Below are positions 19,123 to 53,272 of a stretch of 64,000 nt of DNA, in pieces. The first letter of the stretch is position 1. The number at the start of each line of letters is the position of its first letter. Location of the stretch: the sequence record PZ496581.1. The stretch is one strand, 5' to 3'. The notes under the pieces were generated by a model, which was given only the letters and a program-made list of their open reading frames with translations, was not told the DNA's origin and did not search any database. A program made the position numbers and the translations under genes. Source of the stretch: a phage.

Positions 19123-19329
19123 TTACTGAAAGGTCTCTTTAAGACCGATTGATTCTAAACGCTGAATAAAAGTCAACATTGGGATATAGTCCCAATGTGT
19201 TTTAGACGTTTGATAAGTACGGACGCCATTAGCAATTTCAACGTTCAAATCGGAAATGGTAATGAATATCGGACGTTCGTTATTTACATTAAGAGATAGA
19301 ACAACTTTCTTCGAATTCAGACTAATCAT
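19123..19329 (-). CDS. hypothetical protein
   Basis: Trimmed to ATG 19329 with GAGGA SD. Confidence 0.4.
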   Translation of the reverse strand: MISLNSKKVVLSLNVNNERPIFITISDLNVEIANGVRTYQTSKTHWDYIPMLTFIQRLESIGLKETFQ

Positions 19330-19494
19330 TTTATTTTCCTCTATAGTAGATGGTTTAATCTTAACACGTCTATTGAGGATGTAAACTGTTTTATGAAAAT
19401 ATTTTCGATTTGAGAGGGGCACAAGGAGATAGTGAAGTGAAGATTCCAATGGATTATATTAGAAATGGGATAAAGAAGACCAGGCGGCACCTGG

Positions 19495-19803: not shown

Positions 19804-20127
19804 AATTATTCCTTGCCAAGAACAGAATTCAGTTTATTAGTAATTTTGTCCAAACGTTCATTGAATTCGCTGGAGGATAAACCCTTTTCCGGAGAAATTA
19901 AACTAATCACGAAAAATACAACAGTAAAAGGAATAAGAAAATAGCTCCAACTGCCATAAACAAAAAGAATGTTACAGTTGTAAGAAAATCAGCTAAACCT
20001 TTACGAAATTTATACATATTTACCCTTAATTAACTAAGCATTGATAAGCACTAAACTATATTGGGAATAAAATTCTGGACCAAAATGAAAAATCATATCA
20101 TTTATAGTATCCATAATATAATTCAAT

Positions 20128-20598
20128 TTAATCATGTTTCCACACCCCATCGGTATTTGTCCAAAGTCGCTGATTATCTGATCCTCGCCACAGCTTTTTA
20201 GTCGGAAGATTTTTCTCATACTTCCCATCAATAATAACATCAACATATTTAAGCATTTCTAGCTGTTTAATATCTTCAAACTTATATCCTGTCCACAACC
20301 AAATGCTTTTATTTGGATAAAGATTTTTTACTGTTTGAGCAATGCAATGAATAACATCTCGATTATCAGGATAGAGAGGGTCACCTCCGGTTATAGTCAA
20401 TCCTTCTATATAATCATTATTCAAACATTCAATTAATTGTTCTAGTGTCTCTCCGGTGAATGGAATACCATTTCTAGCATTCCATGTTGATTTATTATAA
20501 CACCCTTCGCATTTATGCAAACAACCTGTAACGAAAAGAACGACCCTGCAACCAGGGCCATTCACAAAATCGCAAGGATAAAATCTATCATAATTCAT
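20128..20598 (-). CDS. nrdG: anaerobic ribonucleotide reductase activating protein NrdG (radical SAM)
   Basis: Cys cluster CRVVLFVTGCLHKCEGC; 156 aa; directly downstream of nrdD. Confidence 0.88.
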   Translation of the reverse strand: MNYDRFYPCDFVNGPGCRVVLFVTGCLHKCEGCYNKSTWNARNGIPFTGETLEQLIECLNNDYIEGLTITGGDPLYPDNRDVIHCIAQTVKNLYPNKSIWLWTGYKFEDIKQLEMLKYVDVIIDGKYEKNLPTKKLWRGSDNQRLWTNTDGVWKHD

Positions 20599-22412
20599 TG
20601 GTGTTTAACCCTATGCATGATTTCTTTATTTTTACCGAGATTAAATCCGCGTTCGTTAGGATTTCCCAAATAACCGCATGTTCTTCTTATGGTGTTCATC
20701 TTTTTAGGATCAGTTTCTCCACAAACTGAACAAACAAATCCGTTTTCAGTAGGAGTCATTTCATGGGTACTTCCGCATGTAAAACATTTATCTACTGGCA
20801 TATTAACACCAAAATAATCTAAATGTTGTGCAGCATAATCCCATACGGCCTCAAGACCTTTTAAGTTATTTTTCATATCAGGAAGTTCAACATAAGAAAT
20901 GTGACCACCTGTCGCAATGAAATGATATGGCGCTTCATGAGAAATCTTTTCAAACGGAGTAATATTTTCTTCTACTGAAACATGGAAACTATTAGTGTAC
21001 CAGCCTTTATCAGTGACATCCTTTACACTTCCATATTTTTCTGTATCAAGTTTACAGAAGCGATAACAAAGGTTTTCAGCAGGAGTAGAATACAAACTAA
21101 AAGCAAACCCAGTTCTTTCAGTCCACTGTTTAAGATGAGCATTCATTTTAGTTAAAATTTCTTGCCCAATATCACGACCGACAAGAATATTCAATTCGTG
21201 AATACCAATGTATCCTAGGGACACTGAACTTCTACCGTTTTTAAATAACTCAATTATATCGTCATCAGGTTTAAGACGAACCCCGAATGCACCTTCTTGG
21301 TAAAGAATAGGAGCAACAGTCGCTTTAACTCCTTTTAAGGAACTAATTCTACACATCAAAGCTTCAAAACATAAATCCATTCGTTCATTGAATAATTCAA
21401 CAAATTTCTGTTCGTTAAATTGCGTTCCAATATAAGAATCTAACGCGATGCGAGGAAGATTCAATGTTACAACACCAAGATTATTGCGACCATCAAGAAT
21501 TTCATTACCGGTTGAATCTTTCCATACACTCAAGAAACTACGGCAACCCATTGGAGAAACAGGAACTGAAGAACCGGTAATAGCTTTATTATTCTTAACC
21601 GAAATAATGTCAGGATACATTCTTTTGCTTGCACATTCTAACGCAAGTTGTTTAATATCATAGTTTGGATCATCTTTATAAAGATTAACACCTTCTTCAA
21701 CAAACATAACAAGCTTAGGGAAAATAGGAGTTATCCCATCACGACCAAGACCTTTAATACGATTTTTCAGAATTGCTTTCTGAATCATTCGTTCAGTCCA
21801 GTCAGTTCCCGTACCAAATGTAATTGTTACAAAAGGAGTTTGTCCGTTTGAACTAAAGAGAGTATTTACTTCATACTCATAAGCTTGAAATGCGTCATAG
21901 ACATCTTTTTCTGTTTTGGATTGAGCATAATTCAACGCATCAGCGATTTGCCATTTTTCTGCATCCTCAATATGTTTTGCATAGGTGCGTTTAACATAAG
22001 GAGAAAGTACTTTATCTACATTCGCAAATGTAGTTCCGCCATACTGGTGTGAAGCAACCTGTGCGGTAATTTGTGCCATAATTGCAGTAGCAACGCCAAT
22101 TGATTTAGGAGTTTCAATCTGTGCATTACCTAGCTTAAATCCATTCTCAAGCATCCCCTTTAAATCGACTAAACAGCAATTGGTAAACGGAAGAGCAGGA
22201 GAATAATCAATATCATGCATGTGAATGATTCCGCTTTCATGCGCATTCATAATAAAAGACGGGACCATATTTTTGGCAATGTGCTTAGACACAATACCAG
22301 CCATAAGGTCCCGTTGAGTTGGAAAAACACGAGAATCTTTATTAGCATTCTCGTTCAAAAGATCTTTATTAGTTTTATAAATTAATCCTTCAATTTCTTT
22401 TTCAATTTTCAT
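20595..22412 (-). CDS. nrdD: anaerobic ribonucleoside-triphosphate reductase NrdD
   Basis: 605 aa; C-terminal glycyl-radical motif RTCGYLG and Zn-ribbon CFTCGS...CSVCG; ORF is continuous (no intron). Confidence 0.95.
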   Translation of the reverse strand: MKIEKEIEGLIYKTNKDLLNENANKDSRVFPTQRDLMAGIVSKHIAKNMVPSFIMNAHESGIIHMHDIDYSPALPFTNCCLVDLKGMLENGFKLGNAQIETPKSIGVATAIMAQITAQVASHQYGGTTFANVDKVLSPYVKRTYAKHIEDAEKWQIADALNYAQSKTEKDVYDAFQAYEYEVNTLFSSNGQTPFVTITFGTGTDWTERMIQKAILKNRIKGLGRDGITPIFPKLVMFVEEGVNLYKDDPNYDIKQLALECASKRMYPDIISVKNNKAITGSSVPVSPMGCRSFLSVWKDSTGNEILDGRNNLGVVTLNLPRIALDSYIGTQFNEQKFVELFNERMDLCFEALMCRISSLKGVKATVAPILYQEGAFGVRLKPDDDIIELFKNGRSSVSLGYIGIHELNILVGRDIGQEILTKMNAHLKQWTERTGFAFSLYSTPAENLCYRFCKLDTEKYGSVKDVTDKGWYTNSFHVSVEENITPFEKISHEAPYHFIATGGHISYVELPDMKNNLKGLEAVWDYAAQHLDYFGVNMPVDKCFTCGSTHEMTPTENGFVCSVCGETDPKKMNTIRRTCGYLGNPNERGFNLGKNKEIMHRVKHQ

Positions 22413-27101: not shown

Positions 27102-27395
27102 CTAATCGTGAGATTTCATCGTCAGAACGTTAAGTTTATTCAGCGCGCTGAAGATTCCATCAGCCATTGATTTTCCATAACCTTTACACGCTTTAATAAG
27201 TGCTCGCGGCAGATTAGTATAGATTTCAGACGGCATATGAAAATCAAATTTACTAGTCAGTAATTGATGAACTTGGATAGCAATTTGCTCATAATTAAGT
27301 GCTCTGCGATCGTTATGGTCTTTAAACCACACTTTAATCTGTGAAGCACATAAACCGTTAATTTCATGTTTTACCGCATCAGATGTAATGCTCAT
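27102..27395 (-). CDS. hypothetical protein, 97 aa
   Basis: ORF track. Confidence 0.5.
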   Translation of the reverse strand: MSITSDAVKHEINGLCASQIKVWFKDHNDRRALNYEQIAIQVHQLLTSKFDFHMPSEIYTNLPRALIKACKGYGKSMADGIFSALNKLNVLTMKSHD

Positions 27396-29624: not shown

Positions 29625-29834
29625 CTACTCGGCCCTTTGACCATGCTTCAGTTGCTTGTCCGGCCGTGCTATTAATATAGCTTGATTTAAGTTCTCAATA
29701 CCCTGAGAATGTGATGCATTTACCGAACCATTGGAAGGCCCAGAAGACTGGTTACCACCAGCTCCTGCACCTGTGGTAGCACCAACAGAGAATGCCATCA
29801 TTACTGCGAATAAACCAATTACTAATTTTTTCAT
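29625..29834 (-). CDS. small secreted/lipoprotein-like protein, 69 aa
   Basis: N-terminal signal-peptide-like MKKLVIGLFAVMMAFSVGA then Gly/Ser/Asn-rich tail. Confidence 0.45.
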   Translation of the reverse strand: MKKLVIGLFAVMMAFSVGATTGAGAGGNQSSGPSNGSVNASHSQGIENLNQAILIARPDKQLKHGQRAE

Positions 29835-33774: not shown

Positions 33775-33998
33775 ATAGGCCTCCTGTTAATTTTGGCCAG
33801 TATTATTTTTCGCCTTTGGACGGCCTTAACATCTGCGAGGTATTTTTCCAGCTTGCGCTTGCGTGTATAATCAGCTTTAGAACCAGTTTGACGGATATCC
33901 TCGTTTAAATGAGAAATAGAATGTCCTAATTCTCTTCGGATTTCATCCAATTGGGTTACAGTAAGATTACGAAGTTGTCTTTCGTTTAATTGCTGCAT
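33765..33998 (-). CDS. hypothetical protein, 77 aa
   Basis: ORF track. Confidence 0.45.
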
Positions 33999-37543: not shown

Positions 37544-37757
37544 AAGGAATTTCCTCATCGGTGGCAAGGTCATATTCGACCAATTGGATAGGCTCATTAA
37601 TACCATATCCACGTACAGTGATATCAGTTGTCGGATAGTTTCCAGTAATATCACCCATTCTAAATGATTCAATGAATGATTGCTCGCCTGAGCAACTAAA
37701 CCAGGCGGCAAAACATTTTAAAACATCTTCAGACCCTTCTATAATCAATTTAGCCAT
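37533..37757 (-). CDS. hypothetical protein, 74 aa
   Basis: ATG at 37757. Confidence 0.45.
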   Translation of the reverse strand: MAKLIIEGSEDVLKCFAAWFSCSGEQSFIESFRMGDITGNYPTTDITVRGYGINEPIQLVEYDLATDEEIPYVD

Positions 37758-38120
37758 TATAGACTCTCAGTAAAGGTACGAGCGATAACGTCGCGCTGCT
37801 GTTCTGGAGTCAGAGAGTTAAAGCGAACTGCATAACCGGATACACGGATGGTCAGCTGCGGATATTTTTCCGGATGCTTAACTGCATCTTCCAGAGTTTC
37901 GCGACGCAGAACGTTAACGTTCAGGTGTTGACCACCTTCAATTTTAACTTTAGGTTGATGTTCAATTTCAATTTCACGGGCATGCAAACCGTAGAAAATT
38001 TCCGGGTCTACAATAGCGTCCTTCTTTAAAAGTCTTAGAGACAATAATCCGGGCTTGAGTACCGTCTTCAAAATAAATAGTGCCTTTATGTGCACCTTCA
38101 AGAATTTGATATGCTTTCAT
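37757..38120 (-). CDS. GrcA/YfiD-like autonomous glycyl-radical cofactor, interrupted by an apparent +1 frameshift near 38020
   Basis: ATG 38120 with GAGG SD opens a 42-codon frame; GrcA-like C-terminus ([14 protein letters not shown]...[12 protein letters not shown]) continues in the +1 frame. Confidence 0.55.
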
Positions 38121-38126
38121 ATAACC

Positions 38127-38408
38127 TCAATTAGAAAATAAATTTATCCAAGATTTTTCTTTAATCAAAAATGGGTCGGAATTAAACGCCATTAAACTTT
38201 GAGTGATTAATCCCTTAAATGGCCCATCAATAAATTCCATTTTGAAATGCGGAATACTAGTCATCAACCGTGCATTAGGAGCAGTACAAAGAACCTGCTG
38301 CCCTGCGAACGGGCCTTTAGTCAAACGGTATCGTTTAGGTTTAAAATGGTAAATCTCGTAATTTTCTACAAGGGCCCTTTTATTGCATACTGGGCTGTTA
38401 TAACACAA
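38127..38408 (-). CDS. hypothetical protein, 93 aa (TTG start in ORF track)
   Basis: ORF track. Confidence 0.4.
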   Translation of the reverse strand: MCYNSPVCNKRALVENYEIYHFKPKRYRLTKGPFAGQQVLCTAPNARLMTSIPHFKMEFIDGPFKGLITQSLMAFNSDPFLIKEKSWINLFSN

Positions 38409-38433
38409 TATTCAAAAACTTCAATAGTGGTCA

Positions 38434-38973
38434 TCATTGCATTCCAATCACAAAAAATTGAGGACGAGCATTACCACCGATGCAATATTTGCTTTTGCAG
38501 CAGTGCTGTAATGTTTTAATGTGGACATTGTAAATCTTATCCATATCAGGAGCTTTAATAGGCTCGTCAATTATATACAGAATACGAGAAAGCGTTAATC
38601 CACGGAATTTAGAACCTTCATTGCCAATAAAACTACGAACAGAATCAGTAAATAAACGGAATCGAATATCATCGCTAGAATAACGAGAAAATTCTTTTTC
38701 AATGTTGCCAGCAGAAATTTTAGCATAAGCTGAAGTATTAGAAAGAACAATAACTGTTCCGCCATCATACAGCCAATTAGCAGCAAAGTTAGTCACAGCA
38801 ATTGATTTACCTGATTGTCGGCCACCGTCTAAACGAAGTGTACAGTACTGCTTGAGTACGTCTTCAAATGGTGGGACATAACCGTTCTTACAAATTTCTT
38901 CTACTCTAGCATCAGAATGGTGTGTAAAAGCATTCATCAGGGATAGATAAGGACCAGTTAAAAATGTTCTCAT
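38434..38973 (-). CDS. P-loop-like protein, 179 aa
   Basis: GGRQSGKS Walker-A-like motif. Confidence 0.5.
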   Translation of the reverse strand: MRTFLTGPYLSLMNAFTHHSDARVEEICKNGYVPPFEDVLKQYCTLRLDGGRQSGKSIAVTNFAANWLYDGGTVIVLSNTSAYAKISAGNIEKEFSRYSSDDIRFRLFTDSVRSFIGNEGSKFRGLTLSRILYIIDEPIKAPDMDKIYNVHIKTLQHCCKSKYCIGGNARPQFFVIGMQ

Positions 38974-42591: not shown

Positions 42592-43160
42592 TACCAGCCT
42601 TCCATAGGGAATTCCAGATAAACTTGAGCGTTGACACGAATTTCATTGGTAATCTTTTTAACTCGGTCTGTATTACGAGATACACGTCCGAACCAACGCC
42701 ATCCATTACTAATTGCACGAGAACCAGTGTGCCATGTTTGCCAATCAAACTGAAGAAGAGTACGGTCCGGAGCTTCCCATTTCTCTAGTTCACCTTTTTC
42801 AATTTTTTCGAGGACTTCTTTGTGCCACTGACGATAGATAAGTTCGCCATCAGAAGTTTTAACATCTACAACCCAATCGCCATCTTTCTCTTCAACCTGT
42901 GGTTTATCCCAAGAAATACTAATATATGATTCACTGTCAATAGAAGTCGCCGGGTTTTTCTTTACTGTAAGACCTTCACTTTCCAGCCATTCAATAGTAT
43001 TTGCGCATAACTCAGAAGAACACCTCATCGGAAACCGGCAAGATTTTTCACCTTTAGCTGCGGTGTTATACATCTTTTCTAAAATACGCTTTTGCACGTT
43101 TTTAAAAATAGTTTCAGCCGATTCTTCAGATTTTTTATTCAGTTCAGTATAAAGACTCAT
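42591..43160 (-). CDS. hypothetical protein, 189 aa
   Basis: ATG with AGAGGAAAA SD; early promoter at about 43185-43217 upstream. Confidence 0.55.
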   Translation of the reverse strand: MSLYTELNKKSEESAETIFKNVQKRILEKMYNTAAKGEKSCRFPMRCSSELCANTIEWLESEGLTVKKNPATSIDSESYISISWDKPQVEEKDGDWVVDVKTSDGELIYRQWHKEVLEKIEKGELEKWEAPDRTLLQFDWQTWHTGSRAISNGWRWFGRVSRNTDRVKKITNEIRVNAQVYLEFPMEGW

Positions 43161-44103: not shown

Positions 44104-44635
44104 TCAAAAACGCTACTCGGCTTACGGCAAAGATATTTCCTCGAATCGATAATTCTGTGCGCCGTTTCTGCTGTGATGTAAGGGGATATTAACGAATCAT
44201 AAAGATTTATTAAGACCAGTCCTTACTCAGGGAACATCAGTCCGACGACTTGCCGGTAGCGACCCGGCTTCTTATTTTGGCATATCATCAATTTGCTCTC
44301 GACGCCGACGCCATAGATTAATCGCTTCATAAACACATTCAGCATTTGGTATATGACGACAATAGTATAGTGATTCGCGTTTCTGGAACCGATGTTGTAA
44401 TGGAATTTCGTTTAAAAGGTCTTTACGGTCAAAGTATTCAAAACTAGTTAACCCTGAACGGTTTTTAAGAAACTTCCAATGTCCGAATTCATTTTGAAAA
44501 TAGACATAATCAGCATGCTGATACAGCGAATTAATTAACCTATCGGAAATAACTGTTTCACGTTCGTTAAAATAAAACGTTAAGTCATGAACTACCAGAT
44601 AAATATTGCCCTTTCATATTTTCCTCACTTGAAGT

Positions 44636-53268: not shown

Positions 53269-53272
53269 TATA

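Follow-up and report, generated by a model that had tools for sequence, protein, structure and literature searches.

A private one-base insertion splits the vs.6 (GrcA/Y06I-type) gene of an RB69-group phage: probable consensus error or very recent knock-out

A gene on the minus strand of the phage DNA analysed here (37757..38120), a 64-kb stretch that we refer to as the window, reads as a glycyl radical cofactor gene of the GrcA/YfiD type that is divided between two reading frames. This raises the question whether the break was introduced when the sequence was determined, is a real mutation of the phage, or is a feature that the phage makes use of. The window comes from a T-even phage of the RB69 group (Mosigvirus) and is 97-98% identical, in stretches of 24-25 kb, to mobillu, moskry, HY126, mar005P1 and similar phages; it has no identical public record.

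The gene was identified as vs.6, the phage homologue of GrcA and of T4 Y06I, and is 364 nt long in the window compared to 363 nt (120 aa) in the relatives, so that one extra base breaks the frame. As initially annotated, its ATG at 38120 is preceded by a Shine-Dalgarno-like element. This is a GAGG at 38125..38128 (minus strand) with a spacer of 4 nt, which is the same in the relatives and overlaps the TGA stop of vs.7 (38129-38127, minus strand). The ORF that opens at this ATG (37974..38120, minus strand) has 48 codons, and not 42 as first reported, followed by a TGA at 37976-37974. Codons 1-33 (MKAYQ...SKTFKE) encode the native N-terminus of phage Vs.6, whereas codons 34-48 are out of frame. 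The private +1 insertion lies in the GG at 38020..38021 of the minus strand, where the window reads AAAGAAGGACGC and the relatives read AAAGAAGACGC with a single G; the frame switch had been placed in a GG run at about 38019-38023, which agrees with this position. After the shift, the native frame continues with residues 34-120 and a TAA (37757..38020, minus strand). It is contained in a mechanically called ORF of 114 aa (38101-37757) that begins at a TTG without a Shine-Dalgarno sequence.

In the alignment of the window with DCP548, RB69, FL23 and moha exactly one base differs, the extra G in the GG at 38021/38020. Each of these four phages has the gene as one ORF of 363 nt with the annotation 'vs.6 / autonomous glycyl radical cofactor GrcA', and the RB69 annotation of vs.6 adds 'similar to T4 accession AAD42676'. 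The gene order vs.8-vs.7-vs.6-vs.5-vs.4-regB, within a minus-strand block of early genes, is also the same as in RB69. When one G was deleted in silico, the repaired protein had 120 aa and was 100% identical to the GrcA proteins of AV115 and PhAPEC2; this protein is found on nine contigs. It shares 95% identity with the vs.6 product of the T4-like phage RB32. The alignment with E. coli GrcA covers residues 22-120, spans the shift site and has 73% identity (E = 2e-52). The +1-frame ORF matches the Pfam Gly_radical domain (PF01228) with 67.1 bits against a cut-off of 22.2. Together with the single-base difference in the alignment, this confirms the initial view that a GrcA/YfiD-type gene is split by a +1 shift.

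The N-terminal frame had also been said to align with GrcA. This holds for the repaired protein, but the 48-aa ORF alone gave no significant BLASTP or family match to GrcA, and the identity of the N-terminus therefore rests on the Vs.6 proteins of phages and not on bacterial GrcA. The best-scoring family of repaired Vs.6 is NCBIfam TIGR04365 (spare_glycyl), to which the repaired protein matches with 158.6 bits and the C-terminal ORF with 149.8 bits, although both scores are below the equivalog cut-off of 170. RefSeq names phage Vs.6 proteins GrcA despite scores under 170 bits in this family, the divergent part being the phage N-terminal third. As sequenced, the gene lacks the single uninterrupted ORF, for a small stand-alone protein of about 120-127 aa, of the GrcA/Y06I family; such an ORF is obtained only after deletion of one G. 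Judged by sequence and synteny, the repaired gene is clearly an orthologue of T4 Y06I: it has the same locus and the same glycyl-radical C-terminus, and differs by the extra G after codon 33, which is absent in all others. This family of genes, its occurrence among T-even phages and its function as a spare part for oxygen-damaged pyruvate formate-lyase (PFL) have been known since 2001.

The 3′ part of the gene closely resembles that of the host. The last 60 codons and the stop (37757..37939, minus strand) are identical to E. coli K-12 grcA (YfiD) in 60 of 60 amino acids and in 176 of 180 coding nucleotides; all four differences are synonymous (dS ~0.09). This module includes the GGT codon at 37835..37837 (minus strand) for the glycine in RVSGYAV that probably bears the radical. 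From the alignment with GrcA, this residue, Gly95 of the repaired protein, corresponds to Gly102 of the E. coli protein. The Pfam Gly_radical domain is common to the phage and E. coli proteins. In contrast, the N-terminal third is phage-specific: 64 of 114 nt differ from E. coli grcA in the 38 codons upstream of the module, no DNA similarity is found upstream of codon 48, and the phage protein is seven residues shorter, besides being frameshifted here. The module is nearer to E. coli grcA than are the grcA genes of Citrobacter (166/180) or Salmonella (150/180). On this comparison vs.6 is sharply mosaic, its 3′ module being E. coli-like, and the pattern suggests that the coliphage T-even lineage acquired the module from an Escherichia host, by gene conversion or by transfer. 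A recent acquisition had been proposed from the closeness of the C-terminus to the host protein. The closeness is borne out, but RB69 (176/180) and the T4-like RB32 (174/180) have this module as well; the exchange is therefore older than the phage studied here, and the module is an old trait of the coliphage T-even family. For KP179, GAP161, 44RR and Th1, which are phages of Klebsiella, Cronobacter, Aeromonas and Salmonella, no bacterial grcA stands out among the 81 species sampled, and their true hosts may lie outside this sample.

Oxygen cleaves pyruvate formate-lyase at its radical glycine, and a spare part, activated by PFL activase, supplies a new glycyl-radical loop, as described in PMC8683613. 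In the same paper, which cites Wagner et al. 2001, E. coli YfiD/GrcA and T4 Y06I are the only two spare parts of PFL that have been validated biochemically, and the only partner given for them with experimental validation is host PFL with its activase. The initial annotation had instead paired the protein with the phage's own glycyl radical enzyme NrdD. The window does contain an intact nrdD (20595-22412) and an intact nrdG (20128-20598), both on the minus strand. However, alignment of Vs.6 with the NrdD of the window gave no significant similarity (best E = 6), and we rejected NrdD as a partner. The profile match of Vs.6 is to the C-termini of PFL-type enzymes (TIGR01255, 89.6 bits) and to no NrdD model. 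By its sequence, the Vs.6 of the window is an ordinary T4 Y06I-type protein, a putative spare part for host pyruvate formate-lyase that oxygen has cleaved.

The insertion was then sought in other sequences. Megablast with a 45-nt query that has the GG at its centre, and that cannot seed on sequences without the extra G, found zero carriers among 50,697 phage records. As a control, the same query was run with blastn and returned 244 relatives, all with a gap and with a best match of 44/45. Exact-pattern scans of IMG/VR, of the JGI metagenomes and of the GTDB genomes did not find the insertion either. The flanking pattern retrieved only two relatives in IMG/VR, which makes this collection a weak test; both are without the extra G and read aaagaagacgct. 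In addition, neither of the split products of 48 and 114 aa was present in an exact look-up among ~15 billion proteins. A tblastn search located homologues in 1,589 phage records, among them T4-like, Klebsiella, Cronobacter, Aeromonas and T5-like phages, and 1,533 of these records gave one single-frame match with a coverage of 80% or more. The extra G is confined to the sequence of the window.

To place this insertion among others of its kind, the window was compared with RB69, moskry, mar006P2 and SSE1 over ~60 kb. It holds seven clean private indels per ~60 kb that are not multiples of three, and six of the seven lie in small ORFs. Besides the +1 in vs.6 (G to GG, 38021), these are a -1 at 19940 (A5 to A4) in gp55.8, which splits a 71-aa membrane protein; a -1 at 29691 (AATG to AAG) in a moskry_117-like ORF; a -1 at 33803 at the C-terminal end of rI.1, where the last 5 aa are replaced by 12; a +2 at 38406-38407 (TG to TGTG) at about codon 10 of vs.7; a +1 at 44608 (CC to CCC) in codon 3-4 of an ORF150c-like gene; and an intergenic +1 at 53272 in the spacer of genes 5/5.1. 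Beside these seven clean indels, a +2 at 19134 falls in a more divergent stretch at the 3′ end of an ORF079c-like gene. A candidate '-2' at 19330 was rejected as a private indel, as it is common to other phages. The vs.7 gene (38127..38437, minus strand) adjoins vs.6, and its indel, 385 nt upstream of that in vs.6, splits the gene into ORFs of 23 and 93 aa; the window reads TATTGTGTTAT at this site and all relatives read TATTGTTAT. With the indel reverted, vs.7 encodes a 102-aa protein identical to one on 36 contigs. Reversion in gp55.8, rI.1 and the gene at 44608 likewise gave exact known proteins, which together with vs.7 and vs.6 makes five out of five. A megablast search of the 50,697 phage records with concatenated 45-mers showed that none of the private indels is shared; the matches for 44608 carry a gap.

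The raw counts of private indels that are not multiples of three are seven for the window, 11 for RB69 (NC_004928) and seven for SSE1, with a range of 2-11 per ~60-70 kb in the four relatives. Because of the values for RB69 and SSE1, the raw count does not discriminate between error and mutation, and private frame-breaking indels seem to be common in public T-even records. An example is the GlmU-like gene, which is annotated as one CDS of 1,686 nt in moskry and as two CDSs in RB69. The frameshifted ORFs of these records are the same in kind as those of the window, namely private indels of 1-2 nt that split small conserved ORFs, whereas in private indels per private substitution the window stands at the high end. 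Per private SNP, the window has 0.0205 private indels, compared with 0.0045-0.0128 in the four relatives. A Poisson estimate for this excess gave P ~0.006 with RB69 pooled and ~0.05 without RB69, and we regard the excess as modest. The T4-essential genes 43, 62, 44, 45, 46, 47, 55, 49, 1, 3, 2, 4, 53 and 5-11, which make up ~36% of the window, are all intact. None of the seven private indels is in a T4-essential gene, for which P is ~0.04 under uniformly random errors.

With little better than even confidence, we explain the frameshift in vs.6 as a single-base consensus error made in sequencing or assembly, in which case the phage itself would encode an intact Vs.6 of 120 aa; we infer that the cause lies in the assembly and not in the phage DNA. 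For the repaired 1.2-kb DNA from vs.8 to vs.5, the best match in public records reaches only 98.7% identity, which indicates that the lineage has truly diverged. Since substitutions in the repaired genes are silent or shared with other alleles while the frames are broken, continuing purifying selection is indicated, and the genes that are broken in the window stay intact in hundreds to 1,500 phages. The alternative, a genuine extra G through which vs.6 has very recently lost its function and become a pseudogene in this phage lineage, is a serious possibility, although we put it below an even chance. The gene, which we take from general T4 biology to be a non-essential accessory gene, would then be one of several such genes lost recently, with vs.7, gp55.8, rI.1 and others. 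This might have happened during aerobic propagation in the laboratory, where a PFL spare part would serve no purpose, or in a stock that was mutagenised or had a mutator character. In keeping with such losses, the essential genes are spared, as selection on real mutations would produce, and this counts against a consensus error. The same is true of the raw indel counts given above, in which the window is no extreme outlier. Moreover, the neighbours vs.7 and vs.6 are each affected, and most contexts (G to GG, TG to TGTG, CC to CCC, A5 to A4) are duplications or deletions in short repeats that are typical of replication slippage. Contexts such as G to GG, TG to TGTG and AATG to AAG are not long homopolymers, and the indels are therefore not classic homopolymer errors of 454, Ion Torrent or Nanopore sequencing. 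On the other hand, a series of knock-outs is difficult to reconcile with the exact known proteins obtained from the five reverted genes, which have zero private amino-acid changes despite a divergence of ~1.3% from the nearest public relative. For five or more genes that are conserved in hundreds of phages to have been knocked out simultaneously and extremely recently, the history of the phage would have to be unusual. In addition, the insertion did not occur independently in any collection searched, and the ratio of indels to SNPs is above that of the relatives. Overall, the indel pattern in the window slightly favours consensus errors over real, very recent mutations. For annotation this means regarding the breaks in vs.6 and in at least five other small ORFs as probable consensus errors or knock-outs of very recent date before any label of pseudogene or recoding is given. 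Should the breaks be real, this phage would represent a naturally occurring multiple knock-out of accessory genes (vs.6, vs.7, gp55.8, rI.1 and others), useful for probing what these genes contribute.

Programmed frameshifting had been named as a third cause, beside a sequencing error and a recent inactivating mutation, but only the latter two stay credible. Programmed or tolerated +1 frameshifting would require tRNA-Lys to slip from AAA to AAG in UUU-AAA-GAA-GGA, and the product would be a protein of 120 aa that differs from native Vs.6 by E34K only. The +1 frame is indeed open from codon 2 on, re-pairing from AAA to AAG would be formally possible, and AAGAAGGA is purine-rich and Shine-Dalgarno-like. 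The likeness to +1 frameshifting of the prfB type, however, is one of formal geometry only, an N-terminal ORF followed by a +1 frame. The vs.6 site, UUU AAA GAA GGA CGC, lacks an in-frame stop, and neither of its A-site codons (GAA, then GGA) is rare; a slippery or hungry-codon context is absent. A correctly spaced upstream Shine-Dalgarno sequence as in prfB is missing, and the only purine run of this kind overlaps the site. The shift site is not conserved, as the relatives are without the extra G and nearly all homologues (1,533 of 1,589) are read in a single frame. A stimulatory RNA structure, which is optional for +1 shifts, is not indicated either: the flanking 116 nt have an MFE of -15.8 kcal/mol (z = +1.08), and 175 of 200 shuffled sequences fold at least as well. 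Furthermore, the other private indels in the window have no motif in common with the vs.6 site. We therefore give hardly any credence to the idea that the extra G is real and that +1 slippage yields a near-native Vs.6 (E34K) in small amounts that may depend on conditions; if such slippage by tRNA-Lys did occur, the spare-part gene would be a translationally throttled allele. It is just as improbable that the gene is split and still functional, with the C-terminal frame translated alone from the TTG at 38101 or the GTG at 38095 to give a GrcA with an altered N-terminus. A truncated YfiD(61-127) still restores PFL activity, although with ~4-fold lower activation and weak binding (PMC8683613), and the 114-aa ORF holds the whole structured C-terminal half. 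Yet both of these start codons, the only ones upstream, are without a Shine-Dalgarno sequence and lie 19-25 nt inside the translated upstream ORF, downstream of the shift no start codon is present, and the split arrangement is unique to this sequence. YfiD's N-terminal half, moreover, matters for binding and activation (PMC8683613). Taken together, it is very unlikely that anything functional takes place at the break, and we are highly confident that the extra G is a non-programmed private insertion, be it an error or a mutation.

Some larger differences from the relatives were also seen in the window. At the junction at ~42853-42899, a block of ~5.4 kb of small ORFs of RB69 is absent, which extends from part of RB69ORF132c through e.3-e.6, frd.3 and RB69ORF145c. 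When this block was searched against the window by tblastn, 13 CDSs had no match and ORF132c matched only partially. In the nrdC.6 homologue at ~27116-27129, ~620 nt that are present in RB69 are missing from the window, and what is left consists of two parts that differ in frame; the gene is annotated at its full length of 996 nt in moskry, mar006P2 and SSE1.
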